From an uncultured Enterobacteriaceae bacterium (GTDB taxonomy: Bacteria; Myxococcota_A; UBA9042), in assembly GCA_964438735.1 (NCBI GenBank), contig CAYTLW010000004.1:51953-115952 (forward strand): a DNA stretch of 64,000 nucleotides, in the 5' to 3' direction. This document shows positions 1 through 15,144 of this stretch, piece by piece. A program made the position numbers and the translations under genes. The stretch's first letter is position 1. Each line of letters starts with the position of its first letter. A model generated the notes under the pieces. The model worked only from the letters and a program-made list of their open reading frames with translations, was not told where the DNA came from and did no database searches.

Positions 1-851
1 AGCAGGCCGACGAAGCCGATGATGCCGGCCAGGGCCACCGCCGCCGCCGCCAGGGCGCTCGACAGCCAGACGGCGGCCCGCATGACAGAACCATCGTCGA
101 CGCCGAGTCCCCGAGCGGTGTCGGCACCGAGCGCCAGGGCGTTGAGGTGCACCGCCCGGGCGACCCCCCAGATGCCGGCCAGCACGGCCATGGCGATCGC
201 CGGCAGCACCTGCCAGGCGGCGTCGGCCATCACCCCGCCCATGAGCCATTGGGTCGCCGCCCGAAGCTGCAGGTCGCTGGCCTGATAGAGCAGAAAGGAC
301 GTCGCCGCGCCGGCGAAAGCGGTCAACACCAGGCCGGCCAACAAGACGCGCTCGGGGCTCGCCGGGCCGCCGGTGCGCGCCAGCCAGAACGCCAGCGACA
401 CGGCCACCATGGCGCCGACGAAAGCGGCCAGGGGCTGGACCACGGGCAGCGCGGCGTCCAGGTTGAAGGGCAGCAGATCGCCGGCGGCCGCCGCCAATGT
501 CGCCACGCCAACGGCCGCGAGTGTGGCCCCGGCGCTGGTACCGACCAGGTAGGGATCGGCGACGGGATTGCGAGTGGCCGCCTGCAGCAGCACGCCCGCC
601 AGGGCCAGGCAGGCGCCCACCGCGAAGCTGCCCAGCACGCGCGGCAGGCGCACATCCAGCAGGATCGCGCTGGCGGTGGCGTGGCCGTCCGTGGTCGGGT
701 CCATCAAGCGGGTCAACAGGTCGAGGTTGGAGATGTCCGCCGGCCCGATGAGCATTCCCAGGGCGATGGAAGCCACGGCGATGAGTACCGAGACGCTCCA
801 GAGCAGCAACAATCGGCCGACGCGGCCGTTGGCAGTGCCGTCGCTGCTCAC
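1..851 (-). CDS. FecCD-family ABC transporter permease (BtuC-like), 3' truncated by window edge
   Basis: Hand translation of the minus strand from a GTG at 851..849 gives VSSDGTANGRVGRLLLLWSVSVLIAVASIALGMLIGPADISNLDLLTRLM...LPRVLGSFAVGACLALAGVLLQAATRNPVADPYLVGTSAGA, the classic FecCD/BtuC signature. The GTG overlaps the TGA of the upstream gene as GTGA. The ORF runs off position 1, which is why it is not in the ORF track. Confidence 0.8.
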   Translation of the reverse strand, partial: MSSDGTANGRVGRLLLLWSVSVLIAVASIALGMLIGPADISNLDLLTRLMDPTTDGHATASAILLDVRLPRVLGSFAVGACLALAGVLLQAATRNPVADPYLVGTSAGATLAAVGVATLAAAAGDLLPFNLDAALPVVQPLAAFVGAMVAVSLAFWLARTGGPASPERVLLAGLVLTAFAGAATSFLLYQASDLQLRAATQWLMGGVMADAAWQVLPAIAMAVLAGIWGVARAVHLNALALGADTARGLGVDDGSVMRAAVWLSSALAAAAVALAGIIGFVGL

Positions 852-1800
852 GGTCTGTCCTCCACGATCGGCGCCGGGACCGCGCCCGGGTGCAGGATCG
901 AAGCCAGCTGACGCAAGCCGTGGATCACCCGCGGCCCCGGGCGTGCCACCCAGTCCGTATGCACGGGGTGGATTCGCCCCTTCTGCACCGCCTGCAGGGC
1001 CGACCAGCCCGGCCGGGCGGCCACCGATGCCGCCGACTGCGGGCTGTCGATGACGTCCACATCGGCCAGAACAATGACGTCGGGTCGGGCCACCAGGATG
1101 GCCTCGGCCGAGACCTGCAGCCAGGGCTGGTCGGTGTCGCCGAAGACGTTGATGCCGCCGGCGGCGACGATGAGGTCGTGACCGAAGCTGCCGCTGCCGA
1201 CGGTGTAGGGCCGTCCTCCGGCGCCCGCGTCCATCTCGTAGAACACCCTCGGGCGCTCTCGGCCCGCCACGGCGGCGCGCACGGCCGCGGCGGCTTCATC
1301 GAGGCGCTTGCGCTCCTGCACGGCGCGCTCGGACCGCCCGCAGAGCCGGCCCACCCGCTCAACGGCGGTGCCTACGCCAGCCAGATCCGCCGGCGCGAAG
1401 GCCGCCCAGTTCACGCCCGCCGCGTCCAGGGCGGCGCGCAGCGGTGGCGGCGGCCAGGTGGTCAGCAGCAGGTCCGGTCGGGCGGCCACAATGGACTCGG
1501 CGCCCGGCGCGAAGCTGCCGACCGATTCGATCTTCAGCGCTGCAGCCGGGTGGTCGCTCCACTCGTCGCGCAGCACGATCCGCTCGCCGCAGTCGATGGC
1601 GAAGAGCGCCTCGGTGATGGCCGGAGAAAGGCTGATGATGCGCTCGGCGGGGCGCGCCAGGCGCACCTTGCGGCCCAAATCATCGGTGATTTCCAAGCTG
1701 TCGGGCCCGCTGGCCGGCGCCGTAGCTGGGCCCTGTCGACAGCCGGGGGCCATGAGCAGGCATGTCACCACAAGCAGCGGCCATGGTTGGAGCAGCTCCA
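848..1800 (-). CDS. Periplasmic substrate-binding lipoprotein, BtuF/TroA-like (cobalamin or Fe-siderophore binding)
   Basis: C-terminal 317 aa of track ORF 848..3022. ATG verified at 1800..1798 (ctccat). Signal/lipobox MELLQPWPLLVVTCLLMAPGC. BtuF-like fold motifs are present (RIISLSPAITE, VNVFGD). Sits in operon with TBDR and FecCD permease. Confidence 0.8.
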
Positions 1801-3066
1801 TCAGAATCCCACCAGCTCGGCCGCTCGCAGGCCGTTGGGGTTGCTGTCCAAGGTCGCGATCGGCTCGGCTACGCCATGACCGGCCATGTCGAAGATGAGC
1901 AGATCGCCGTCTTTGGCCCCCCGGTCGGTGACCCAGAGACGACGACGATCGACATCCAGCCACAGGGAAGTCATGGCGAAGGGGCCGCTGGCGTCGGCGA
2001 TCTTGATGGGTTTGCCGCCCTTCAGGTCGAACTGCCACAGGGCATCGGGCACGCCGGCGGTCAGGTCGCCGTCGGTGATCACCCAGCCTCGACCATCCCC
2101 ATCGAGCGCCAGGTCGAAGCCGAAGCCCCGCGTGGTGCCGGTGTCGCTGGCATGGGCGGCCACCGACGCGGTCGTCGCGGTGGCGCCGACGGCCAGATCG
2201 AGGATCTTGGAGAAGGTGTAGCGCTTGCCGTCCGGCTCCTTGTAGAAGCCGCTGCAGACCACCGCAACCCGCTTGCCGGCGCTGCGTGCGGCGGTGCAAT
2301 TCTTGGCCGCCGCCACCGTCAGGACCTGATTCACCTTGCGCGCGACCGGATCGACGATTGCCACACTGCCCTGGCCCATCTGGCCGAAGTCGGTGGCCAC
2401 CGACGCCAGCGGCACCACCAGCTTGCCCCCGGCCATGGTCATGCGCCCGGGCCAGGCATGGGCGTCGGCCAGCGAAGCGTGCTCGGACAGGCCGATGCGA
2501 TGGTCGATCTCGCCGCTGGAGGCGTTCACGTGCACCAGGTCGTCGCCACGGGGCGCGTCGGCGGGCGCCTTGACGTCGCGCTGAGCGCGGCTGACCCACA
2601 ACCCCCCCTTTCCATCGCCGATGGCGTCCTGGGGATTGGCCAGCCAGCCACCTGCCGTCTTCACCTGGCCGAGTACGCCCTCGTCGCTCACATGGGTGAG
2701 CACGCCGCTGGCCCGGTCGATGAGCCAGAAGCTGCCATCGCCCGCCGGACGACGGCCCAGGACCACGTCGCCGCCCAGGGCGGTGCCGCTGCAGGTCACC
2801 CGCGTGCCGCTGTGCAGGAACGCCGCTGAGACCACCTTCATGTTGGCGCGATCGATGATCGACACCTCGGTGGTCTGGAAGTCGGTGCCGACCACGGCCA
2901 GCAGCTCGTCGACCCCTTCCGGCGTCGTCCACCCCGCCGCGCCACCATCGGCGCCGCAGGGACCGTCGGTGTCCGTTGTATCGTCGACGCAACCGGCCAG
3001 CAGGAGCCAGATGAGACACCACAACAGGCCGGTCGCCGACAGCTTGCGGCGATTCAAGTCGGTCAT
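1801..3066 (-). CDS. Lipoprotein, beta-propeller-like, unknown function (possible surface B12-capture accessory, BtuG-like by context)
   Basis: Real start MTDLNRRKLSATGLLWCLIWLLLAGCVDD (ATG at 3066..3064) lies inside track ORF 1801..3483. The lipobox is LLAGC. The protein has repeated ~40-aa segments with WL/WV/VTD signatures suggestive of propeller blades. Its stop TGA at 1801..1803 abuts the next ATG. Confidence 0.6.
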   Translation of the reverse strand: MTDLNRRKLSATGLLWCLIWLLLAGCVDDTTDTDGPCGADGGAAGWTTPEGVDELLAVVGTDFQTTEVSIIDRANMKVVSAAFLHSGTRVTCSGTALGGDVVLGRRPAGDGSFWLIDRASGVLTHVSDEGVLGQVKTAGGWLANPQDAIGDGKGGLWVSRAQRDVKAPADAPRGDDLVHVNASSGEIDHRIGLSEHASLADAHAWPGRMTMAGGKLVVPLASVATDFGQMGQGSVAIVDPVARKVNQVLTVAAAKNCTAARSAGKRVAVVCSGFYKEPDGKRYTFSKILDLAVGATATTASVAAHASDTGTTRGFGFDLALDGDGRGWVITDGDLTAGVPDALWQFDLKGGKPIKIADASGPFAMTSLWLDVDRRRLWVTDRGAKDGDLLIFDMAGHGVAEPIATLDSNPNGLRAAELVGF

Positions 3067-5126
3067 GGTGCGGTCCTCCAGGTCAGATTCAGCATGGCCG
3101 TGCGTCCGGGCAGGGGGTAGCCGATCAGGTCGAAGTTCTCGCGGCCAAGCAGGTTGTCGACGCGCAGGGCGACGCGCAGCCGACCGCTTCGATCCTCGCC
3201 GCCGAAGCCGACATCCAGGCTGGCCCGCGCCGGGACCGCGACCCGATTGGCCCGGTCGGTGAAGTGCCCGGACTGCCAGCGACCCGCCAACCAGCCATCC
3301 AGCCGGCCCATGCGGGCCCACGGGGTGCCTTTGACCGCCAGCCGGCCGCCGATTCGGGCGCGCGGCCGCATGGGCAGGGCGTTGCCGTTGTACTCCGGCT
3401 CGGGCGAGCGATCGCGGCCATGTAACAGGGCGTAGCGGGCGCTCAGTTGAAAGTGCTCGCCGAGGCTGGCCCCTGCCTCGCATTCGCCGCCCAGCAGGAT
3501 CGCCGAACCCAGGTTGTCATGGCGTGCCTGGTGGGCGCTGACCCGGCGCAGCTGGATGAGATCGTCGACCGCCATGGCAAATCCCGACAGGCGCATATGT
3601 AGCCGATGTCGGGTGCCTGCGGTGGTCAGGCGAACGCCCGCATCGAGGCCATGGGAGCGCTCATCGAGCAGCGCTGGATTGCCCAGCACGGTGCCGTCAT
3701 TGCCGAAGAGTTCGGACAGGGTCGGCGCCCGCAAGCCGCGGGTCCAGCCACCGTGCAGCTGCACCCGCTCCTGCACCTGCCAGCTGGCCGCCATTCGCCA
3801 GGTGGTCAGGGCGCGCGGATCGATATGCTCCTGCCGCCAGCCATCGGCCTCTACCGGCAGATTGGCCCGCGTCGATTGCAGCCAGGCCACCGTCACCGAG
3901 GGCAGCAGGCTCACTTCCGGCGACGCCCAACGCAGCGGCAGCCCCAGGCCGCCGGTCACACCGCTGCGATGGGAAGTGGGCGCCTCCAGCCCCGTGCGAT
4001 CGTCGCGCTGGTCGACCGTGCCGTGGTCGGCCGCAACCCGAGCCTCGGCGCGCAAGGGTCCCCAGGCCGGACCCAGCCAGCGCCAGGCGCTCGACAGACC
4101 GGCGATGACCTGGTGCAAGCGCTGCGGCATCCCCAGCTCACCGAGGCTGTCTTCGACCCGCGTATTCCGCCTGGCGGCTTGTACATGACCCTGCAGCCGA
4201 GCGCCCCGCAGGCCTACATGGCGCCCCGATACATGCAGCACGGCGTCGTGAAAGCCGTGGCGCAGGCTCGACTCTTCCGCCTCGAAGAGCGCCACCCCTG
4301 GCAGCCCCTGCTCGCGCCAGCTGCCCAGGTACCTGCCTTCGATCCGCCAGCCGCGACGGGGCCGAAAGGACTGTCGCAGCAGGCCCCCCAGTCGCTGGAT
4401 GTGGTTGTTGCGCCGCAATCGCCAACGGTCGTCGCTGGCATCGAACGCGGTGCCACCATCGAAGGTATAGCCGTGGTCGCCATCGGAGCGCAGCCAGCGC
4501 AGGGCCGCCGTGCCCTCGCCGCCCAGCGCGCGCCAGGACGCGCTGCCCTCGGCCAGGTGGCTGCCATGGCTGCCGGTGGCCAGGCGCAGATCGGCGCCGG
4601 GCGTCTTCGGCCGACGCAGCATCAAGCGCACCGCGCCGCCGATGGATTGGCCGCCCAGGGCCAGGGGCGTCGCGCCGCGATGGATCTCGGCCCGTTCGAG
4701 CTGGCCGATGGGCAGGTCGTCCAGGTCCAGGGGCCGGCCATCCAATGCCTGCAGGGGGACGTCGTCCAACGCGTAGCGGACCTGCTCCAGCGTCGAGCCG
4801 CGGATCCGAAGCGTGGTCACCGCACCGAAGCCGCCCGTACGCTGAACCTGCAAGCCCGCCTGGCGATCCAGGGCGTCGGCCAGGTCGCGATGCTGGCGCC
4901 TCACCTCGGCTCCTTGCAGCACTGTCGCCGCATCGCCCAGTTCGAATTCGGGCTCGTCGTCCACCAGCCTGCGGGCGCGCACCGGCACCGGCGCCACCGC
5001 CGTCGGATCCTGCGCTGCGGTCGCCGTCTGGTGGGCTGGAGCGGGCACCGCCGCCGCGACGGCAGTCGGCCGCAGCAGAATGCATGCGAACAGGAAGAAG
5101 CAGGGCGCAGCGAATCGACCAACCAT
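3063..5126 (-). CDS. btuB: TonB-dependent outer-membrane receptor, BtuB-like
   Basis: Signal peptide MVGRFAAPCFFLFACILLRPTAVAAA starts at an ATG verified at 5126..5124. Plug and barrel motifs are present (VTTLRIRGST, IEGRYLGSWREQGLPG). A cobalamin riboswitch lies immediately 5'. The 830-aa track ORF over-extends N-terminally through the riboswitch. Confidence 0.85.
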   Translation of the reverse strand: MVGRFAAPCFFLFACILLRPTAVAAAVPAPAHQTATAAQDPTAVAPVPVRARRLVDDEPEFELGDAATVLQGAEVRRQHRDLADALDRQAGLQVQRTGGFGAVTTLRIRGSTLEQVRYALDDVPLQALDGRPLDLDDLPIGQLERAEIHRGATPLALGGQSIGGAVRLMLRRPKTPGADLRLATGSHGSHLAEGSASWRALGGEGTAALRWLRSDGDHGYTFDGGTAFDASDDRWRLRRNNHIQRLGGLLRQSFRPRRGWRIEGRYLGSWREQGLPGVALFEAEESSLRHGFHDAVLHVSGRHVGLRGARLQGHVQAARRNTRVEDSLGELGMPQRLHQVIAGLSSAWRWLGPAWGPLRAEARVAADHGTVDQRDDRTGLEAPTSHRSGVTGGLGLPLRWASPEVSLLPSVTVAWLQSTRANLPVEADGWRQEHIDPRALTTWRMAASWQVQERVQLHGGWTRGLRAPTLSELFGNDGTVLGNPALLDERSHGLDAGVRLTTAGTRHRLHMRLSGFAMAVDDLIQLRRVSAHQARHDNLGSAILLGGECEAGASLGEHFQLSARYALLHGRDRSPEPEYNGNALPMRPRARIGGRLAVKGTPWARMGRLDGWLAGRWQSGHFTDRANRVAVPARASLDVGFGGEDRSGRLRVALRVDNLLGRENFDLIGYPLPGRTAMLNLTWRTAP

Positions 5127-5169
5127 CGATCTCCCGTTCCACGAGGAGTCGGATTCAACGCCTGCTGCA

Positions 5170-5345
5170 AGGTTTCCTGGCTCGCGGCTGTGCGACGCCC
5201 CGGAGGCCGTCGCCCGTCGCATCCGCCTTCCCAGTCGCCCCACGGGGGCCGCACCAGTGGCTCGTTGGATGCGCCTCACCGCTGACAGTGGCGGGCCCGC
5301 GCCGGATTCACACCGGCTTCCCTCCACAGCAAGCTCGACCACCAT
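5170..5345 (-). promoter_or_regulatory. Cobalamin (adenosylcobalamin) riboswitch in btuB leader
   Basis: Minus-strand RNA reads ...GAGGGAAGCCGGTGTGAATCCGGCGCGGGCCCGCCACTGTCAGCGGTGAGG...GAGCCACTGGTGCGGCCCCCGTGGGGCGACTGGGAAGGCGG...GAGCCAGGAAACCTTGCAG. This matches the conserved GGGAA / GGTG..AATCC / CCCGCCACTGT core. It also matches the B12 box (rAGYCMGgAgaCCkGCC as AGCCAGGAAACCTTGC). It ends about 45 nt upstream of the btuB ATG. Confidence 0.75.
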
Positions 5346-5409
5346 AGCGCAGCGGTGTTGCGCCGACCAGCCACTTGCGGCCGTGGCGGCGCCCGGGCAC
5401 CCTCCGCCC

Positions 5410-5976
5410 ATGAATGCGAGCGCTTTGAACCACCTGCACGAGATCGACTGGACCACCTGGCAGCCTGTGGATCTGGCGACCCTGCTGTTCGTGATCGATG
5501 GCGACCGGGTGTTGCTGATTCGCAAAAAGCGCGGCCTCGGCGCCGGCCTCATCAACGCGCCGGGCGGTCGCCTGGACCCGGGCGAGACTCCCCGTCAGGC
5601 GGCGGTGCGCGAGGTGCAGGAGGAGTTGGGAATCACCCCCCATTCGCCGACCTGGGGGGGCGAACATCGCTTCCAATTCCGCGACGGTTATTCGCTCTAC
5701 GTGCACGTATTCACCAGTGATCGTTATGACGGCGAGCCCACGGAGACCGATGAGGCGGTGCCGCTGTGGGTCCAGCGCGACGCGATGCCCTACGAGCAGA
5801 TGTGGGCCGACGACAGGTACTGGCTGCCGCTGCTGCTGGCCGGTCAGCGATTCTCGGGGCGCTATATCTTTGATGACCAGGAGATGGTCGCCATGCACAT
5901 CGCCGAGCTGCAGGACGGCGATCCCGACGGTGATGTGGGCGTGCGGCGACCTGAAGATGGTGCCGGCGCGGACTGA
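5410..5976 (+). CDS. NUDIX hydrolase (MutT-like)
   Basis: ATG at 5410 (MNASALNHL...). Nudix box GGRLDPGETPRQAAVREVQEELG is present. Divergent from the riboswitch/btuB leader. Confidence 0.8.
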   Translation: MNASALNHLHEIDWTTWQPVDLATLLFVIDGDRVLLIRKKRGLGAGLINAPGGRLDPGETPRQAAVREVQEELGITPHSPTWGGEHRFQFRDGYSLYVHVFTSDRYDGEPTETDEAVPLWVQRDAMPYEQMWADDRYWLPLLLAGQRFSGRYIFDDQEMVAMHIAELQDGDPDGDVGVRRPEDGAGAD

Positions 5977-5990
5977 GTGCCGCTCGCGAC

Positions 5991-7112
5991 CTACTTCATC
6001 GAGCAATCGACATTGGATGCGCCGCACGACTCGAGGTACAGCGGCTTGTCGTTGTTGGTGAAGGTGCCCAGCTGCAGGTCGCGGATCTTCAGCCAGCCGC
6101 CGTAGCCAACCGCGCCGCTCTGCTCGTCCAACGCCACGGCCCGGATGTCCAGGTTCTTGTCCAGGATGCCGCACACGATCAGGCCGTTGGCGCCCGGGGG
6201 GATGTTGCAGGTCGGCTTGATGAATTGCAGGTCGATGGCGCGCTCGCTCAGGCTGTTCGACGGCCCGAGATCGCAGGGTTTGGCGGCGTCATTGGCGGTC
6301 AGGGGCACGATAACGGCCGCGCCGGGGCGGCGGACCTCGACCTTGATGATGCTGATGCCGTTGCCGCCGCAGGTCTTGCCGTTGGAGAACTGCCACGGGA
6401 TGTTGATGCTGGCGCGCAGGTCGATGATGTTCTCGGGCGCGGCCAACGCGGTGATGGTATTGGACGCCAGGCCGATGGGACCGATCACGTTGAGGTTGCC
6501 GTAGAAGGCGTGTTCGTTCTTGTCCACGCCGTCGATCTGGAGCCACACATCGCCCGGCGCCAGCCCATCGATGGCCACCTGGCCGACCGTGCATGCCACC
6601 GTGGTCTGGGCCAGCGCCTTGGTCAGTTTGCTGTCGAAGACGGTGACCGAGACGGAATCGAGGCTCAGCTGGGCACAGCCGGTGGCCGGGGCCATGCCGG
6701 CGACGGTCCACTTGACGCGCACGCCTGCGTCACCGCTGCCGGTGCCGCTCTTGAGCACCAGCTCCGGCGACAGGGTGTTGGTGTCGGACTCCACCTGCAG
6801 CCCGCCGAGGCTGGCCGTGCGGATGGTCTTGCCCGAGCCGCTCAGGCCGACCACGACCACGTCGTAGTGGCCCGGCTCCAGGGCGAAGGAGTGAAAGCCC
6901 TTGCTGCAGGCCAGTTGGGGCGACTCGTCGTAGAGCTGGCCGCCCTTTTCGATGCGTACCCGCACGCCGGCGATGCCGGAGCAGGCGACGGGACTGTTAT
7001 CCCAGCGGACCTCCAGCACACCGGTGTTGGAGGTGGCGTGAACGATGCAACCGCTGATGACAAGGGCGCACGCCATGGCGCCGACAAGGCTCGTCCTGGT
7101 GATGTTCGACAT
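5991..7112 (-). CDS. Hypothetical secreted lipoprotein
   Basis: Track ORF; signal/lipobox MACALVISGC. No recognisable catalytic motifs; Gly/Ser-rich, probably a beta-rich fold. Confidence 0.6.
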   Translation of the reverse strand: MSNITRTSLVGAMACALVISGCIVHATSNTGVLEVRWDNSPVACSGIAGVRVRIEKGGQLYDESPQLACSKGFHSFALEPGHYDVVVVGLSGSGKTIRTASLGGLQVESDTNTLSPELVLKSGTGSGDAGVRVKWTVAGMAPATGCAQLSLDSVSVTVFDSKLTKALAQTTVACTVGQVAIDGLAPGDVWLQIDGVDKNEHAFYGNLNVIGPIGLASNTITALAAPENIIDLRASINIPWQFSNGKTCGGNGISIIKVEVRRPGAAVIVPLTANDAAKPCDLGPSNSLSERAIDLQFIKPTCNIPPGANGLIVCGILDKNLDIRAVALDEQSGAVGYGGWLKIRDLQLGTFTNNDKPLYLESCGASNVDCSMK

Positions 7113-8138: not shown

Positions 8139-10541
8139 TTACTGCTTGACCCAGACCATGGTGACGCCGGCCCCGCCTTCGCCCTTGCGACCGAGACGGT
8201 AGTGGGCCACCTGGGGGTGGCCGCGCAGGTGCCCTTGAACGGCGTTGCGCAGGGCTCCGGTGCCGATGCCATGCACCACGCAGGCGCCCGGACCGGCCTC
8301 CACGATGGCGCGATCCAGGTGCCGATCGACCGCCATGAGCGCCTCTTCGACACGCATGCCGCGCAGATCGCAAGTCCAACGTTCCGTGCGTAGAGGCAAG
8401 GTGTGATCCTCGTCGATTCGAGCCGGATCGTCCGCTGGCCGCGCCTTTTCCGGCCGAGTGCTCGCCTTGGGACGGCCACTATCGCCCCCCCGCGGCGCAC
8501 GCAGCTCGTCGACTGATACAGCCATCTCCAGCGGACCAGCGCGGACCCGCAGCCGGCCCCGTTGGGCATCGATCTCGGTGATGACTACCAGCCGCTCCAG
8601 CCCGGGATGCCAGGCGGGGGCGTCGACCTGCAAGCTCGCCAGGTCCAGCGCTGGCCGATCGCCACTACCATCGACCTGCGCCTGCGCCTTTTTGCGGATG
8701 GCGTCGGCGCGGGCCCGGGCTTGCCCCGCCGCGCGCGCCGCCTCGTCCACCTTGCGCTGGGACGGCTGCTTGCGAAGCTGCTTGCGCGTGGCGTTCAGCT
8801 CGCTGCGAATGTCATCCAGCTCGGCGATCGTCTCGCCGGCGGCGTGTTCGATCCGGCGATCGGCGGCGCGTTTTTCATTGCGTCGTTGATCCTCCAGCCG
8901 GCGGCGGGCTTGCTCTACCTGGCGATGCTCGTCGGCGGTCTGCTTGAGCTGCTGATCCAGCTGCCCGCGCAGGGTGCGTAGCCGGTCCAGCAGCTCTTCG
9001 GTCTCCTTGCTACCGACGCCGGCCAGCTCGCGGGCCCTGTCCACGATCTCATGGGGCAGCGCCAGCCGATCGGCGAGCGCGAAGGGGCTCGACGAGCCGA
9101 CCTCGTCCAAGCGCAGTCGGAAGTCCGGCGCCAGGGAGTTCGGGTTCAGATCGAGCGCCGCGTTGCCGAAGCGGTCGTCTCTCAGGGCCAGCAACTTGAC
9201 CGTCTCATAGTGCGTGGTGACGAGTCCGAGACAGCGGCGATCGGCCAGCGCCTCGAGGAAGGCCGTAGCCAGCGCACTGCCGGCGCTCGGCTCGGTGCCC
9301 GAGGCCAACTCGTCCAGCAGGACCAGTGGCGGCGGACCGTCCTGGGCGTCCTGGCCGGTGGCGTCGAGCACGGCGCGCACCTGCTCCAGGTGGCCCGAGA
9401 ACGTGGACAGGCCACGATCCAGGTCCTGCGCATCGCCGAGCACCACGTGCACCGCGCCCAGCCAGGGAAGGATGCTGCCCTCATCTGCGCAGACCGGCAG
9501 GCCGCGGCGGGCCATCTCGACGGCCATGCCCGCAGTGGTCAGCACCACGGTCTTGCCACCGCCGTTGGGCCCGCTGACCACCAGCCAGCGACGCGGCGGG
9601 GTGATGGTCACGTCGTTGGCCACCACGGCGGCATCTTCCAGGATGAGCACCGGGTGGCGGGCGCGGCGCAGGTCCAGGTGGCCGTCCTCGCTGAATCGAG
9701 GTGTCGACGCCTGCAGGCGCTCGGCGAGGCGGGCGCCAGCGAAGATGCCGTCGAGCCCCGCCAGTTCGTCGCTCGCGCGGCCGATGGCCGGCGCCTTTTC
9801 GGCCACCAATCCGGACAACTGAGCCAGGATGCGATGTTCCTCGCGTCGCGCCTCGCCCGCGACCATGGTCAGCTTGTTGTTGGCTTCCACCAGGTCGGTG
9901 GGCTCGATGTAGATGGTCTGGCCGGTCTGCGAAGAGCCGTGCACGATGCCAGCCACCTGCCGTCGGTCGCTGGATTTGACCGGCAATACGTAGCGACCGT
10001 CGCGCACCGTGAAGTAGTCATCCTGCAACACGCCCTGATCGTCGGTCTCCCGCACGAGGTCGGCGATCCGATTGCGCAGCCCGCTGCTGCGACGTCGGAT
10101 CTCCTTGCGCAGGCGGGCCAGTTCATCGCTGGCGTCGTCGCGCAGGGTGCCATCCTCTTCGAAGACGTCGTCCGCCAGGTCGGCCAGCACGCTCAGGATG
10201 GGCAGACCGCCAGCCAGGTCGGCCAGCTCAGCAGCGTGCTCCCGCCAGGATTCGGCGCGGTCGGCCATCTTCTCCGCGCAGCGTGCAACCGCGGAGATGC
10301 GTAGCAGATCCTCGCCGCCCAGCACGCCGCCGCGCCCCGCCAGTTCGACCAGCGGCGCCACGTCCAACTCGCCATGAATGGTTGTTTGCAGGCCCTCAGC
10401 CACCACCGCGCGCCCCTGCTGGATGCGCGCCATGGACGCCAGGGCGGCCTCGGCATCGGCCAGCGGCTGCAGCGCGCGAGCCCTCAGGGCGGCCACGTCG
10501 CTATCACACTGGGCGGCCAGGGCCGAGCGGACCCGATCCAT
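8139..10541 (-). CDS. mutS2: Endonuclease MutS2 (MutS domains III-V plus C-terminal Smr)
   Basis: Walker A VVSGPNGGGKT, LSTFSGH motif, and C-terminal Smr (LRGMRVEEALMAVDRHLDRA...VHGIGTGALR). The track ORF starts at a TTG at 10562. An ATG (MDRVRSAL) at 10541 is the more likely start. Confidence 0.85.
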   Translation of the reverse strand: MDRVRSALAAQCDSDVAALRARALQPLADAEAALASMARIQQGRAVVAEGLQTTIHGELDVAPLVELAGRGGVLGGEDLLRISAVARCAEKMADRAESWREHAAELADLAGGLPILSVLADLADDVFEEDGTLRDDASDELARLRKEIRRRSSGLRNRIADLVRETDDQGVLQDDYFTVRDGRYVLPVKSSDRRQVAGIVHGSSQTGQTIYIEPTDLVEANNKLTMVAGEARREEHRILAQLSGLVAEKAPAIGRASDELAGLDGIFAGARLAERLQASTPRFSEDGHLDLRRARHPVLILEDAAVVANDVTITPPRRWLVVSGPNGGGKTVVLTTAGMAVEMARRGLPVCADEGSILPWLGAVHVVLGDAQDLDRGLSTFSGHLEQVRAVLDATGQDAQDGPPPLVLLDELASGTEPSAGSALATAFLEALADRRCLGLVTTHYETVKLLALRDDRFGNAALDLNPNSLAPDFRLRLDEVGSSSPFALADRLALPHEIVDRARELAGVGSKETEELLDRLRTLRGQLDQQLKQTADEHRQVEQARRRLEDQRRNEKRAADRRIEHAAGETIAELDDIRSELNATRKQLRKQPSQRKVDEAARAAGQARARADAIRKKAQAQVDGSGDRPALDLASLQVDAPAWHPGLERLVVITEIDAQRGRLRVRAGPLEMAVSVDELRAPRGGDSGRPKASTRPEKARPADDPARIDEDHTLPLRTERWTCDLRGMRVEEALMAVDRHLDRAIVEAGPGACVVHGIGTGALRNAVQGHLRGHPQVAHYRLGRKGEGGAGVTMVWVKQ

Positions 10542-10710
10542 GGCCAGCAGATGTTCGTTCAATGCATGCCTCTTGTGTGGGCGGGAACCGGTCTCCCCAA
10601 CGGTCCGGTGGCGTGCGTGCGCCGCGCTTGCCGGCCCGGATTCAGACTTCTATCATCCCGGACACGGATGCGCGACCGGCCGTCACGGACGCGGATGGCC
10701 AAGGAACCCG

Positions 10711-13449
10711 ATGGCAAGCGGCGCGAACGAGACCACCGGTCAGGCCAGCACTTCGTCGACGAATCGACTGCGGGGCACCGGTAAGACGCGCGCCCTGGGC
10801 GATGGTCGACGTCGGCAGACGTGGGCCGACTTCCGCAAGGCGGGCGGCAACGACACCACCGTGATGGGCCGCTCTGTGCCCTTCGTGGGCCGTCGCAAAG
10901 ACCTGGAATCCCTGTACAACACCGTTCGAGACGGGCTCAACAAGCGGCACGTACGTATCGCCTGGATCCACGGCGCGGCAGGTGTGGGCAAGTCACGCCT
11001 GCTAAGCGAATTGGAACGCGCGGTGGCCCCATCGCGTCGCGGTGTGGGCTGGTACGCGGCGGTCGCTGGCAAGGATCGCGGCGGTCCGCCCACGCTGGTG
11101 GGCCGGATCCTGCTGGAGGTCCTGGGTGGCGCGCCGGTGATGGTGGACAGCGACCCGTGGGGCCGCGTACGCGAGAACCTGGTCGCGCTGGTCGGCGAGA
11201 AGCACGCTGGCGAGTGCATGGCCGTGGTCGCGCCGCTGATCGGTTTGCCGCTGCCCGAAGGGGCCGAGAGCGGCATGCGCACCCGAGAGCCGCCGCCGGA
11301 AGTGGCGGTGCAGTTCGCCGGCAGCGTATTGCGCAGTCGCGGCCGGGGCGGACCCTTCCTGATCCGAATCGACGCCTCCCATGACACCACCGGCGAGTCC
11401 GTGCTCATGGCCCGTGGTCTGGCCGAGACCCTGGTGGGCATCTCCGCGGCCGTCATGGTCGAGTCGCGCGAGCCGCCGCCGCCGGGCCTGGACGTGTCGG
11501 GGCTGTTGCTCAGCGACCTTGAGCCCGACAGCGCCATGATCCTGGCCCGTCACCTGGTCAAGGACCTGGACGGCTCGCCCGCCAACCTGGCCGACCAGAT
11601 CATCGAGCGTTCCGGTGGCAATCCCGAGCGTCTGCTCGACGTGCTGCGCGGCATGATCGCCGCCCGCGACATCGTCCGCAAAGAGGGTGTATGGCGCTGG
11701 CGAAGGGCGACCGAGCCCGGCGGCCAGTCGGCCCTGCCCGAACCACCCGAAGCCGAATCTGCGCATGAGACGCCCCTGCCCGATCGAATCGCCCGCCTGC
11801 CCAAAGACCTGCGCCGAGTCGCCGAAGCCTGCGCCATCTTTGGCTCCAGCTTCTGGTTCGGCGGCGTGCTCTCGGTGTTGAGGGGCTCGGGCGGCAGTGG
11901 TGGCGGCGACACCATGACCGATCGCGATCGCGCGCGGCTCAAGGCGTCGATGATGCAGATGCAGTCGATCGAGCTGATCGTCTTCGTCGAGAACAGCAAG
12001 ATGAGTCGCGAGTTGGAGTTCGCTTTCGAACACGCCAACGACGCCCAGCGCCTGGTCGCCCGCATGCCCGGTGATCAGCGCCGTCTCTACGCCCGCCTGG
12101 CGGCCCAGTGGCGGAACTGTCGACCGCGACGGGATCCCATCGCCGACAATGAGCGCATCGCCAACCTCTACCAGCAGGGCGGTCGGCTGCGCCTGGCAGC
12201 TGGCCTCTACCTGGAGGCAGGCCACGCAGCGCGTAACGTCGGTCAGACCCAGCGCGCGGTCGAGCTCTACGAGGCGGGCAGCCGGATCTCGAGCACCGAT
12301 GACGCCGACCTGGCCGCCGACCTGCGTACCGCGCACGGCGGCGCCCTGCTGCGCCTGAGCCAGCACGACACCGCCGAGCCGATCCTGCTCGACGCCCTGC
12401 GTATGGCCCGCTGCCTCGAAGACGACGTTCGCTGCGGCATCGCGCAGCTCAGAGTGGCCCAGGTGGCGCGCGTCTCCGGCCGCTACGAGACGGCCCTCCG
12501 CTTCCTGGAGGGTGCGCTCAAGCACCTGCGGGTCGCCGGCGCCCACCGCTGGATCGCCGACGTGATGGACGAGATCGGTCTCGTGCACCTGGTCCGTGGC
12601 GAACAGGATGGCTACAAGCTGGCCCTGGCCCACTTCCTCAAGGCGCTCGCCCTGCGCAGGCGGAGCGAGGATCGTCGCGTCGTCGCCCGCTCTCTGTGCC
12701 ATATCGCGCGCATTCATACGGGCCGTGGCCACTTCGACGACGCCCTGGATTCGGCCAACGAGGCGGTGCAGATCTGCGAGCAGATCGAGGATCGCTGGGG
12801 CAACGCCAAGGCGCGCACAGTACTCGGCGAGGTGCTCGCCGCGTCGGGTAAACACCGCTCAGCGCTGACCGTCTGGCAGGCGGCGCGCGAACTGGCCGAT
12901 GAGGTGGGCGACACCTCCCGTCGGCTCGAGGTGACGATTCTGCAGGCCGAGGCGGCGATCGCGATCGGCGAGTGGCAGGACGCCGCTGCGCTGATGGTCG
13001 ATGCCGTCGACGACGCCAAAGAGGTCAACGATCCGGAGCTGCTGTCGGGTATCTACCGCGTGCAGGCCTCGATCTCCCTGGAACGACAGGCCCTGGAGAC
13101 GGCCGACCTGGACAGCCTGCAGGCGGTCGAGGTGGCGCGCGAGAGCGGTGCCCGATCCCAGGTCGCTCGCGCTCTGCTGGTGCGCGGCTGCGTGCTCGGC
13201 ACACGGGCGTTGAGCGAGACCGGTGCCCGCAGCACGGTCGTCGATCGCAAGGCCACCGAGGCCTTCCAGCAAGCGCTGGACGCGTTCAAGGAGATGGGCG
13301 ACCTGGTTCGCCAGCGGGCGGGACTGCGCTCCTATGCCAACTACCTGACGCAGCGCGGCGGCGGTCCGCGATTGGGCGCGGTCGAAGCGCGACTGGCCGA
13401 GGTGACCGCAGAGCTGGTGCAGGTATCGGGTGCGCCGTTGGACGGCTAG
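10711..13449 (+). CDS. STAND/AAA+ ATPase with C-terminal TPR repeats, regulatory-type, no recognisable effector or HTH
   Basis: ATG at 10711 (MASGANETT). Walker A IHGAAGVGKSRLL is present. The C-terminal half is a long alpha-helical TPR-like region. Confidence 0.7.
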   Translation: MASGANETTGQASTSSTNRLRGTGKTRALGDGRRRQTWADFRKAGGNDTTVMGRSVPFVGRRKDLESLYNTVRDGLNKRHVRIAWIHGAAGVGKSRLLSELERAVAPSRRGVGWYAAVAGKDRGGPPTLVGRILLEVLGGAPVMVDSDPWGRVRENLVALVGEKHAGECMAVVAPLIGLPLPEGAESGMRTREPPPEVAVQFAGSVLRSRGRGGPFLIRIDASHDTTGESVLMARGLAETLVGISAAVMVESREPPPPGLDVSGLLLSDLEPDSAMILARHLVKDLDGSPANLADQIIERSGGNPERLLDVLRGMIAARDIVRKEGVWRWRRATEPGGQSALPEPPEAESAHETPLPDRIARLPKDLRRVAEACAIFGSSFWFGGVLSVLRGSGGSGGGDTMTDRDRARLKASMMQMQSIELIVFVENSKMSRELEFAFEHANDAQRLVARMPGDQRRLYARLAAQWRNCRPRRDPIADNERIANLYQQGGRLRLAAGLYLEAGHAARNVGQTQRAVELYEAGSRISSTDDADLAADLRTAHGGALLRLSQHDTAEPILLDALRMARCLEDDVRCGIAQLRVAQVARVSGRYETALRFLEGALKHLRVAGAHRWIADVMDEIGLVHLVRGEQDGYKLALAHFLKALALRRRSEDRRVVARSLCHIARIHTGRGHFDDALDSANEAVQICEQIEDRWGNAKARTVLGEVLAASGKHRSALTVWQAARELADEVGDTSRRLEVTILQAEAAIAIGEWQDAAALMVDAVDDAKEVNDPELLSGIYRVQASISLERQALETADLDSLQAVEVARESGARSQVARALLVRGCVLGTRALSETGARSTVVDRKATEAFQQALDAFKEMGDLVRQRAGLRSYANYLTQRGGGPRLGAVEARLAEVTAELVQVSGAPLDG

Positions 13450-13467
13450 CCGGGCGCCGAGCGTGCC

Positions 13468-15144
13468 CTACCAACGCAAGTGCAGGACTCCGCCCACCTG
13501 GCCAGGCGCCAGCGAGGGCGCGATCGCGACCCGTGACCAAATCGACTCGTCCGTGCCGAGGTCGGCGCTGCGGCTGCTGCCGGTCAGCGCGACGTAAAGG
13601 CCTGTGAGCGCCAACAGGCCGCCCACCGAAGCGGTCGCCACACCCGTCCACCAGGTCTGCTCGGCGCCGTCGAAGTTGGGCGTGTAGTTCTTGTCGTCAT
13701 CCTTCAACGAGTTGGCGGCCTCCGCTTCGGCCACCGCGTCCAGGACCAGGTAGCCGCCGACGCCGCCGGACAGCAGGCCCAGGGTGGCCAGCGTCCAGCC
13801 CTTGCCGCTGCGGCTCAGCCCTTTGGCGCCGAAGAGGTACATGCTGCCAACCGCCAGGGATACGCCACCCAGGGCGGCCGTGCCGTAGCCGACCCACGCC
13901 ATCTGGGCGGCCGGGTCGTAGTAGTCATCGTATTGGGAGTGGCCGAGCGCCATGCCGTTGGCCAGGCGTGCGTTGGTGACGCTGACCAACGCCAGCCCCG
14001 TGCCGCCGCCGACCAGGGCCAGGCCGATGCCCGACCAGATCAGGCCCTTGAAGACGCTGCTGCCACCGCTGGAGCCGCCGCCGCTGTCGACCACCACATC
14101 GGCGGGCGCCGCGTCGCTGAATTCGTCTTCGTCTTCTTCTACGTCGTCGTAGCTGCCGCCGCCCGGTGCCGGCGGGGCGTCCTCGTCATCGTGGTTCACC
14201 TTGGGCATCTCCACAGTGGGCAGCTCGACGCCGGGGGGCGGCGCATATTCGCCTCCGGCACCGCCGCCACGAGCGGCCGCTGGCGGTCCGCCGCGAGCCG
14301 GTCCCGAGTTGCGCACATTGCCCAGGCGCGAACCGCGACCACCACGATTGGCCATCTCCAAGGGCGTCAACTTGCGCTCGACGTTCGAGGCCATTCGCAG
14401 TTTGAGGCCGTCCTTGACCTCCCGTTGCAGCTTCTGCTTGATGACGTGTCGAGCGCCCGCCTTGAGCGGGATCGTCTTGACCCAGCGGATGTAGCCCGGC
14501 GCGCGGATCTCGATCACCTTGGGTCCTGGTGCGACGCGGAAGACGCGCCGCGTGGCGTGCCCCAAGAACACCCGGTTGGCCCAGATCTCGGCGTTGGCAG
14601 GCTGGATCTCGACGCGGATCTCGGGCGCGCGGATCATCTCCATCGCCACCCGCATTTCGCGCACCTCGCCCCGTGACGCGGCGATGATGCGGCTCTCGTC
14701 GGCGTAGTCCTTGGCCTTCAGATCCATGGCGTGGGAACCCTCGGGCAACCAGAGCAGGTACTGGTTGCGGCGCGGATGGATCTTCTTGCGGTCGATGGTC
14801 AGCCAGGCGTGGGCAGGGGTGACGTTGATCTTGTACAGGCCGTAGCCGGCGTCGCGTAGATCCCAGCGCAGGCTGTGGCGGAGGTTGGTGGCCTGACGTT
14901 GGATGCTCGACGTCAGGCGCGGCGATGCCAGGGCGCGCTCGGCCCAGTTCATGGCTTTGCCCAGCTGACCTTTGCTGCGGAAGTGCTCGTGCAGCTTCCA
15001 GGCCAGTCGTGCGTCTGGATGCTTGTTGAAGCGCTTGATCTGGGACTCGATGCTCTTGCCCTTGGCCATTGCAGGCGATGCCAGCAGCGCCCCGCAGAGC
15101 AAAGCGGCGAGCAGGGTCCATCGAATCGTTGAACTATATTTCAT
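13468..15144 (-). CDS. Secreted PEGA-domain protein with C-terminal Gly-rich membrane region
   Basis: ATG at 15144 ([27 protein letters not shown] signal). PEGA-like segments are present ([35 protein letters not shown]). Acidic linker followed by Gly-rich TM helices. Confidence 0.65.

Follow-up and report, generated by a model that had tools for sequence, protein, structure and literature searches.

The closest described counterparts of the system reported here are BtuG1, BtuG2, and BtuG3 of Bacteroides thetaiotaomicron (structures 3DSM, 8BAI, 8BMY, 8BN0, 8PTD, 8PTF, 8OKV, and 8BLW), N-terminally lipidated seven-bladed beta-propellers whose genes lie beside a BtuB-type receptor gene in corrinoid-riboswitch loci that also hold btuF and btuCD. 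Under a homology criterion of BlastP E < 1e-10, BtuG homologs were found exclusively in Bacteroidetes (Wexler et al. 2018, PMC6143338). Lipoprotein-capped TonB-dependent transporters have been described as seemingly exclusive to Bacteroidota (PMC10404256), and a survey of receptor "lids" placed nearly all conserved pairs in Bacteroidota (10.1101/2023.03.17.533168). We analyzed a 64,000-nucleotide (nt) stretch of contig CAYTLW010000004.1, hereafter the window, from what appears to be an uncultured marine member of the Myxococcota. Positions 1 to 5350 hold a minus-strand operon in which a cobalamin riboswitch leads genes for a BtuB-like TonB-dependent receptor, a 421-amino-acid (aa) lipoprotein, a BtuF-like binding protein, and a BtuC-like permease. 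We propose that the lipoprotein is probably, though by no means certainly, a BtuG-like B12 accessory that captures corrinoid for the receptor, in a second phylum.

Like BtuG, the window protein is a predicted N-terminally lipidated seven-bladed beta-propeller encoded in such a locus. It differs from BtuG in its phylum and in being about 80 to 90 residues longer than the BtuG propellers, and its family lacks the Bacteroidota lipoprotein export signal, carrying instead an acidic stretch that often reads C-x-D-D-T. The canonical proteobacterial btuB and btuFCD genes likewise combine a cobalamin riboswitch, a TonB-dependent receptor, a BtuF-type protein, and a BtuCD-type importer. Here, in contrast, these components share one operon, an extra lipoprotein gene separates btuF from the receptor gene, BtuC is fused to BtuD, and the BtuF-like protein has a lipobox-like signal. 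XusB of Bacteroides (PDB 9HQE/9HQK) is a propeller lipoprotein encoded beside a TonB-dependent receptor gene and captures the substrate of that receptor, but the substrate is a siderophore, the phylum is another, the structural match to the window protein is weaker than that of BtuG, and riboswitch control is absent. YncE of Escherichia coli is a soluble periplasmic protein rather than a lipoprotein, and its structural scores fall below those of BtuG. It is iron-regulated, and we know of no link between YncE and B12.

Fold and sequence of the lipoprotein family

The model of the lipoprotein that AlphaFold2 built from a 137-sequence alignment has a mean predicted local distance difference test score (pLDDT) of 91.4 and a predicted template modeling (TM) score of 0.88, and it supersedes an earlier model from 5 sequences (pLDDT, 68). 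After a disordered linker it contains 28 strands, consistent with seven four-stranded blades. When the model was compared with solved structures using Foldseek, ranks 1 to 7 were all BtuG1, BtuG2, BtuG3, or 3DSM, with E values from 2.3e-12 to 7e-11 and target-normalized TM scores of 0.68 to 0.74. These matches comprise BtuG2 with cyanocobalamin (8BAI, 8BMY, 8BN0, and 8PTF), BtuG1 (8PTD), BtuG3 (8OKV), and a Bacteroides uniformis homolog (3DSM). The original prediction, made from the sequence of the window, had suggested a BtuG-like propeller from the position and repeats of the lipoprotein, and the fold of the model bears out that parallel. It had also stated that the protein is not a standard Btu component, and here too our searches agree: scans of the window lipoprotein and of 27 family members against Pfam and NCBIfam yielded no meaningful family.

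Sequence comparison alone reaches far less. The single lipoprotein sequence had no sequence match among solved structures, and word-indexed homolog searches returned 5 proteins from the window protein, all from syntenic operons of close relatives, and 6 from the 137-sequence alignment. A hidden Markov model (HMM) scan with a profile of the 5 proteins, however, recovered 713 cluster representatives at E ≤ 1e-3 and 161 at E ≤ 1e-30, mostly of 400 to 450 aa. The only solved structure matched by the family profile is YncE (3VGZ; E = 1.8e-4, 23.7 bits), in a match made up of several weak segments, and the YVTN model TIGR02276 was matched by 1 of 27 family members, at 0.031. Family members are annotated as "hypothetical" or "YncE family protein," the latter being the name that NCBI and UniRef use for some Sorangium homologs, and the PDB chains of BtuG1 and BtuG2 are likewise named "YncE family protein." A very distant common origin of the lipoprotein family and BtuG within the YncE-type propellers is plausible from these comparisons. 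Literature searches pairing BtuG with Myxococcota turned up no account of the lipoprotein family.

The same YncE connection invites a different account of the protein, in which a lipoprotein facing the periplasm, anchored at the inner leaflet of the outer membrane or at the inner membrane, takes B12 from the periplasmic side of the receptor and either holds it or passes it to BtuF. Two periplasmic propellers offer parallels: AztD chaperones zinc, and E. coli YncE is encoded beside the receptor gene yncD. Beyond the profile match and the database names given above, AztD is the next family after BtuG in the Foldseek ranking (1.7e-9), and YncE is matched as well. We know of no surface-export machinery established for such lipoproteins in Myxococcota, and published views hold lipoprotein-capped receptors to be specific to Bacteroidota (PMC10404256; 10.1101/2023.03.17.533168). 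Against such a shuttle, BtuG ranks above both YncE and AztD in both structure searches, and the periplasmic step is already served by a dedicated BtuF. We regard a periplasmic role as unlikely, and the remaining evidence that bears on it comes from the N terminus of the family and from its genomic context.

The N terminus of the window protein consists of a signal peptide and the lipobox LLAG↓C26, and the lipobox Cys is aligned in 135 of the 137 members. In 115 of those 135, an acidic residue follows at positions +2 to +5 after the Cys, and in 22 the sequence is exactly C-x-D-D-T; the window protein reads C26-V-D-D-T (2977-2991, minus strand). The acidic stretch may act in sorting or docking and is reminiscent of the export signal, likewise acidic, of surface lipoproteins in Bacteroidota. 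Downstream of it lies a linker of 21 to 114 residues, rich in Pro, Ala, Gly, Asp, and Thr. Long acidic, Pro/Thr-rich linkers are common in surface-exposed lipoproteins, and the presence of such linkers, up to 114 residues long, after the lipid anchor argues against a protein confined to the periplasm.

Within the propeller, six positions are invariant (D117, R160, G174, D176, C257, and C271), and the motifs LSGDV, DR, and NPxD are nearly so. The invariant pair Cys257 and Cys271 suggests a disulfide and hence an exported protein. The invariant or near-invariant polar residues D62, S86, D100, D117, R118, Q134, N144, D147, R160, and D176 all fall in about the first three blades of the model. Blades 1 to 4 of BtuG2 supply the thirteen hydrogen bonds made to the corrin side chains (PMC10404256), and it is a suggestive parallel that the conserved polar residues of the Myxococcota family concentrate in its first blades.

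The invariant charged residues D117, R160, and D176 could also form an active or metal-binding site, as would be expected of a corrinoid-salvage enzyme that modifies or releases corrinoids outside the cytoplasm, for instance by freeing B12 from carriers or remodeling analogues. Many seven-bladed propellers of such architecture are lactonases, lyases, or cyclases. We consider an enzymatic role very unlikely: the model searches described above yielded no enzyme family at any threshold tried, the top structural matches are binding proteins, and genes coupled so tightly to a receptor gene, often with overlap, typically encode transport partners.

Gene neighborhoods of the family

To place the family in its genomic setting, species genomes were scanned with a degenerate DNA pattern for D-V...[LIV][LIV]DR...NP[QH]D...V-x-R, a pattern that demands GAC for Asp100 and thus favors GC-rich genomes. 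The scan gave at least 120 loci, and 118 of the 120 listed are true family members by HMM; the other two, one labeled Chloroflexia and one labeled Rhodoplanes, are not. Most labels among the listed true matches are Polyangia, Polyangiaceae, Sandaracinaceae, Myxococcales, Myxococcota, or delta proteobacterium, along with a few general labels (Proteobacteria/Pseudomonadota or "uncultured bacterium") and one Bdellovibrionales. Cultured carriers include Sorangium cellulosum So0157-2 and So ceGT47, several Sorangium sp., Labilithrix luteola DSM 27648, and Minicystis rosea DSM 24000. These homologs are only 25 to 36% identical to the window protein, and for that reason the context they share with it is informative. 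We gave little weight, in contrast, to synteny in the 60%-identical relatives (loci L005 to L011) because their flanking genes are shared as well and the arrangement may reflect common descent alone.

Two elements recur around the family gene. Among the 100 listed loci that include 600 nt or more of upstream DNA, 76 have a TonB-dependent receptor gene directly upstream on the same strand, often overlapping the family gene. Of the 69 listed loci scanned with Rfam, 50 have a cobalamin riboswitch upstream of the family gene on the same strand, as do 47 of the 58 scanned loci that retain 2.8 kb or more of upstream DNA. The receptor gene usually stands between the riboswitch and the family gene, a distance of about 2.0 to 2.8 kb. 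In genomes of this kind, cobalamin riboswitches number roughly one per megabase, and the chance that a random 8-kb block contains one is therefore about 1%. Because the observed linkage is far above this expectation, we place the family in the B12 regulon, usually with a receptor as partner. Membership of the lipoprotein in the B12 regulon and its partnership with the receptor are well supported, and the original suggestion of an accessory in a different phylum gains support from homologs with labels of Myxococcota and Polyangia type that mostly sit behind both elements. The shuttle account fares less well here: only a minority of the listed loci have BtuF- or BtuCD-like genes next to the family gene, and coupling to the receptor gene is far commoner than coupling to btuF or btuCD.

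Receptor partnership by itself would also suit a general receptor accessory that handles siderophores, heme, or metals rather than corrinoids, with the B12 link peculiar to a subset of loci. Such an accessory would accommodate the 19 of 69 scanned loci that lack a riboswitch, the myxochelin receptor MxcH as the top NCBIfam match of the window receptor, and the xenosiderophore-binding propeller lipoprotein XusB among the structural matches (E = 2.8e-8). It is nevertheless the least probable of the accounts that we weighed, and we hold it to be very unlikely. Besides the 47 of 58 loci just described, there are 12 among the 69 scanned in which fewer than 100 nt separate a riboswitch from the lipoprotein gene downstream of it. 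A tandem layout of riboswitch, receptor gene, second riboswitch, and BtuG-like gene is seen in five of these 12 (L020, L024, L040, L070, and L123), with the second riboswitch about 80 nt ahead of the lipoprotein gene. Rfam detected no riboswitch class other than cobalamin in the scanned loci, and some copies of the gene adjoin genes for methylmalonyl-CoA mutase, a B12-dependent enzyme.

Individual loci depart from the usual layout in several ways. The copies next to methylmalonyl-CoA mutase genes (L021 and L096) stand back-to-back with them and have their own riboswitch and no adjacent receptor gene. At L047, one cobalamin riboswitch precedes open reading frames that resemble, by eye, the large and small subunits of a class I ribonucleotide reductase, and a second riboswitch precedes the BtuG-like gene. 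At L033, a cobalamin riboswitch (5637-5828, plus strand) follows closely after the BtuG-like gene, in the same orientation, and presumably controls the next gene; Rfam found none ahead of the receptor-lipoprotein pair.

At eight further loci (L016, L023, L043, L060, L067, L092, L107, and L124), six of them labeled Sandaracinaceae, the directly upstream gene encodes a lipoprotein of about 215 aa instead of a receptor. These lipoproteins share the motif EIVEAPGATG..NGVRGGG..SLDVYS..VFENGF..FMDPVVVEVS.DG..W, and the two scanned against Pfam, from L067 and L107, had no match. The gene lies downstream of a cobalamin riboswitch in all six of its loci scanned with Rfam. Judged from sequence and position, the approximately 215-aa proteins are a second, uncharacterized lipoprotein family of the B12 regulon.

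The operon in the window

The features of the window operon and its neighbors are collected in Table 1.

Table 1. Features of the B12 operon and adjacent genes in the window
Feature	Coordinates	Strand	Evidence or remark
Cobalamin riboswitch aptamer, RF00174	5346..5149	-	Rfam cmscan, 73.4 bits (gathering score, 31.5), E = 3.3e-16, full model 1-189
Expression platform, short, putative	5127..5148	-	CUCC...GGGAG stem able to occlude the Shine-Dalgarno sequence
TonB-dependent receptor, BtuB-like, 687 aa	ATG 5126 to stop 3063	-	Plug (6.8e-14) and barrel (3e-23), Pfam
Lipoprotein, 421 aa, predicted seven-bladed beta-propeller	ATG 3066 to stop 1801	-	Lipobox and structural model
BtuF-like binding protein, 317 aa	ATG 1801 to stop 848	-	Peripla_BP_2 (1.3e-19), Pfam
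BtuC-like permease gene, 5' part, 283 codons	GTG 851 to <1	-	FecCD (3e-53), Pfam
NUDIX hydrolase gene	5410-5976	+	Divergent from the operon
Gene for a 373-aa protein	5991-7112	-	N-terminal hydrophobic segment; no Pfam match in the precomputed record
MutS2/Smr gene	8139-10562	-	Past the gene for the 373-aa protein

The aptamer scores far above the gathering threshold and is the single Rfam match in the whole window, which upholds the cobalamin riboswitch named in the original prediction. The minus-strand gene order given there is likewise the order that we found, and the overlapping or abutting junctions that it described are present. The receptor and lipoprotein genes meet at ATGA (3066-3063), where the lipoprotein ATG overlaps the receptor stop; the lipoprotein and BtuF-like genes meet at TGATG (1803-1799), where stop and ATG have one base in common; and the BtuF-like and permease genes meet at GTGA (851-848), where GTG 851 overlaps the btuF stop. 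GGGAG precedes the receptor ATG, and GGAGGA precedes the permease GTG. The description of the operon as complete holds for the presence of its elements but not for their extent: btuC is cut at base 1 and, in the full contig (L001), continues as a 645-aa BtuC-BtuD fusion (FecCD plus ABC_tran; 12216-14153), so that the ATPase part lies outside the window and the operon reaches about 1.1 kb past the window start. A fusion of 640 aa is likewise present in the relatives L005 to L007.

A short leader suggests how the riboswitch may act. The aptamer ends 22 nt before the receptor ATG, and in the spacer sequence, GACUCCUCGUGGAACGGGAGAUCGAUG, CUCC is able to pair with the GGGAG of the Shine-Dalgarno sequence (5135-5131). 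The relatives L005 and L009, whose lipoproteins are about 60% identical to that of the window, have a riboswitch at the corresponding position, and the motif GACUCCUCG..GGGAG.UCGAUG is conserved in all three. No terminator-like site was found within 5000-5600. A search for a sigma-70-like promoter upstream of the riboswitch found none, a scan that is uninformative in so GC-rich an organism. The folding energy of the leader and of the Shine-Dalgarno stem was no better than that of shuffled sequences, with z-scores that were not significant. The riboswitch most likely controls translation initiation, an assignment that we draw solely from the layout (the 22-nt gap and the lack of a terminator) and from the conserved stem that would occlude the Shine-Dalgarno sequence.

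The proteins on either side of the lipoprotein are recognizable but divergent. Against the TonB-B12 model TIGR01779, the receptor scores 113.6 bits (9.3e-33), under the equivalog cutoff of 599.7, and against the BtuB equivalog NF007926 it scores 84.2 bits, under the cutoff of 836. Its best sequence matches among solved structures include E. coli BtuB (3e-15), and B. thetaiotaomicron BtuB1 matches as well. The BtuF-like protein scores 95.9 bits (2.1e-27) against the BtuF model NF002894, under the cutoff of 234, and its top sequence matches among solved structures are B12-binding BtuF proteins (1.8e-25). We use the names "BtuB-like" and "BtuF-like" because both proteins score under the NCBI equivalog cutoffs, and we assign both to B12 because of the riboswitch and the operon. 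BtuC models match the permease at about 1e-35. The signal of the BtuF-like protein ends in a lipobox-like sequence, LLMAPG↓C, and this protein may have a lipid anchor instead of being free in the periplasm.

Upstream of the operon, the NUDIX hydrolase gene and the receptor gene start only about 283 nt apart. The neighborhood of NUDIX, 373-aa protein, and MutS2/Smr genes is kept in the 60%-identical relatives L005 and L006.

Proposed function and its implications

The operon as a whole would import B12 or a related corrinoid. When B12 is plentiful, it would shut the operon off through the cobalamin riboswitch, while low B12 would permit translation. The lipoprotein would be anchored in the outer membrane, bind corrinoid on one face of the propeller, and pass it on to the neighboring receptor, whose extracellular side it would probably cap, the two working as BtuG and BtuB do in Bacteroides. 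The BtuF-like protein would then bring the corrinoid to the fused BtuCD importer. Corrinoid binding by the lipoprotein, its location at the outer membrane or cell surface, and its capping of the receptor are steps that we infer by analogy with the Bacteroides system.

Several observations weigh against this BtuG-like role. The structure-based identity to BtuG is 11 to 15%, and the 137-sequence profile, searched against solved structures with a cutoff of E ≤ 10, recovered no BtuG chain. Although the lipoprotein resembles BtuG in every other respect that could be examined in silico, homology to BtuG was not found by sequence, and we therefore do not file it as a BtuG family member; the parallel that we draw is one of fold and genomic context, not of family membership. 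About a quarter of the listed family loci have no adjacent receptor gene, and no riboswitch precedes the family gene in 11 of the 58 scanned loci that retain 2.8 kb or more upstream. To our knowledge, moreover, BtuG-type surface export of lipoproteins is known in Bacteroidota only.

A broader proposition concerns the family as a whole: that lipoprotein-capped B12 receptors of the BtuB-BtuG type occur beyond Bacteroidota, with the propeller family of Myxococcota (Polyangia and relatives) doing the same job either as a very ancient BtuG relative or as an independently recruited YncE-type propeller. We advance it tentatively, with our doubt slightly outweighing our confidence. If receptors are capped in Myxococcota, then these bacteria must place lipoproteins on the surface and dock them on TonB-dependent receptors.

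A family with hundreds of members, in soil and marine Myxococcota, shares with BtuG the predicted fold, the lipid anchor, the receptor partnership, and riboswitch control. If the proposed role is correct, a family that has gone unnamed would gain a function, and surface lipoprotein export in myxobacteria would become a question in its own right. Because homologs occur in Sorangium cellulosum, Labilithrix luteola, and Minicystis rosea, cultured strains would offer a testable system. The strategy of capturing a scarce vitamin under a receptor lid would then extend to a second phylum.

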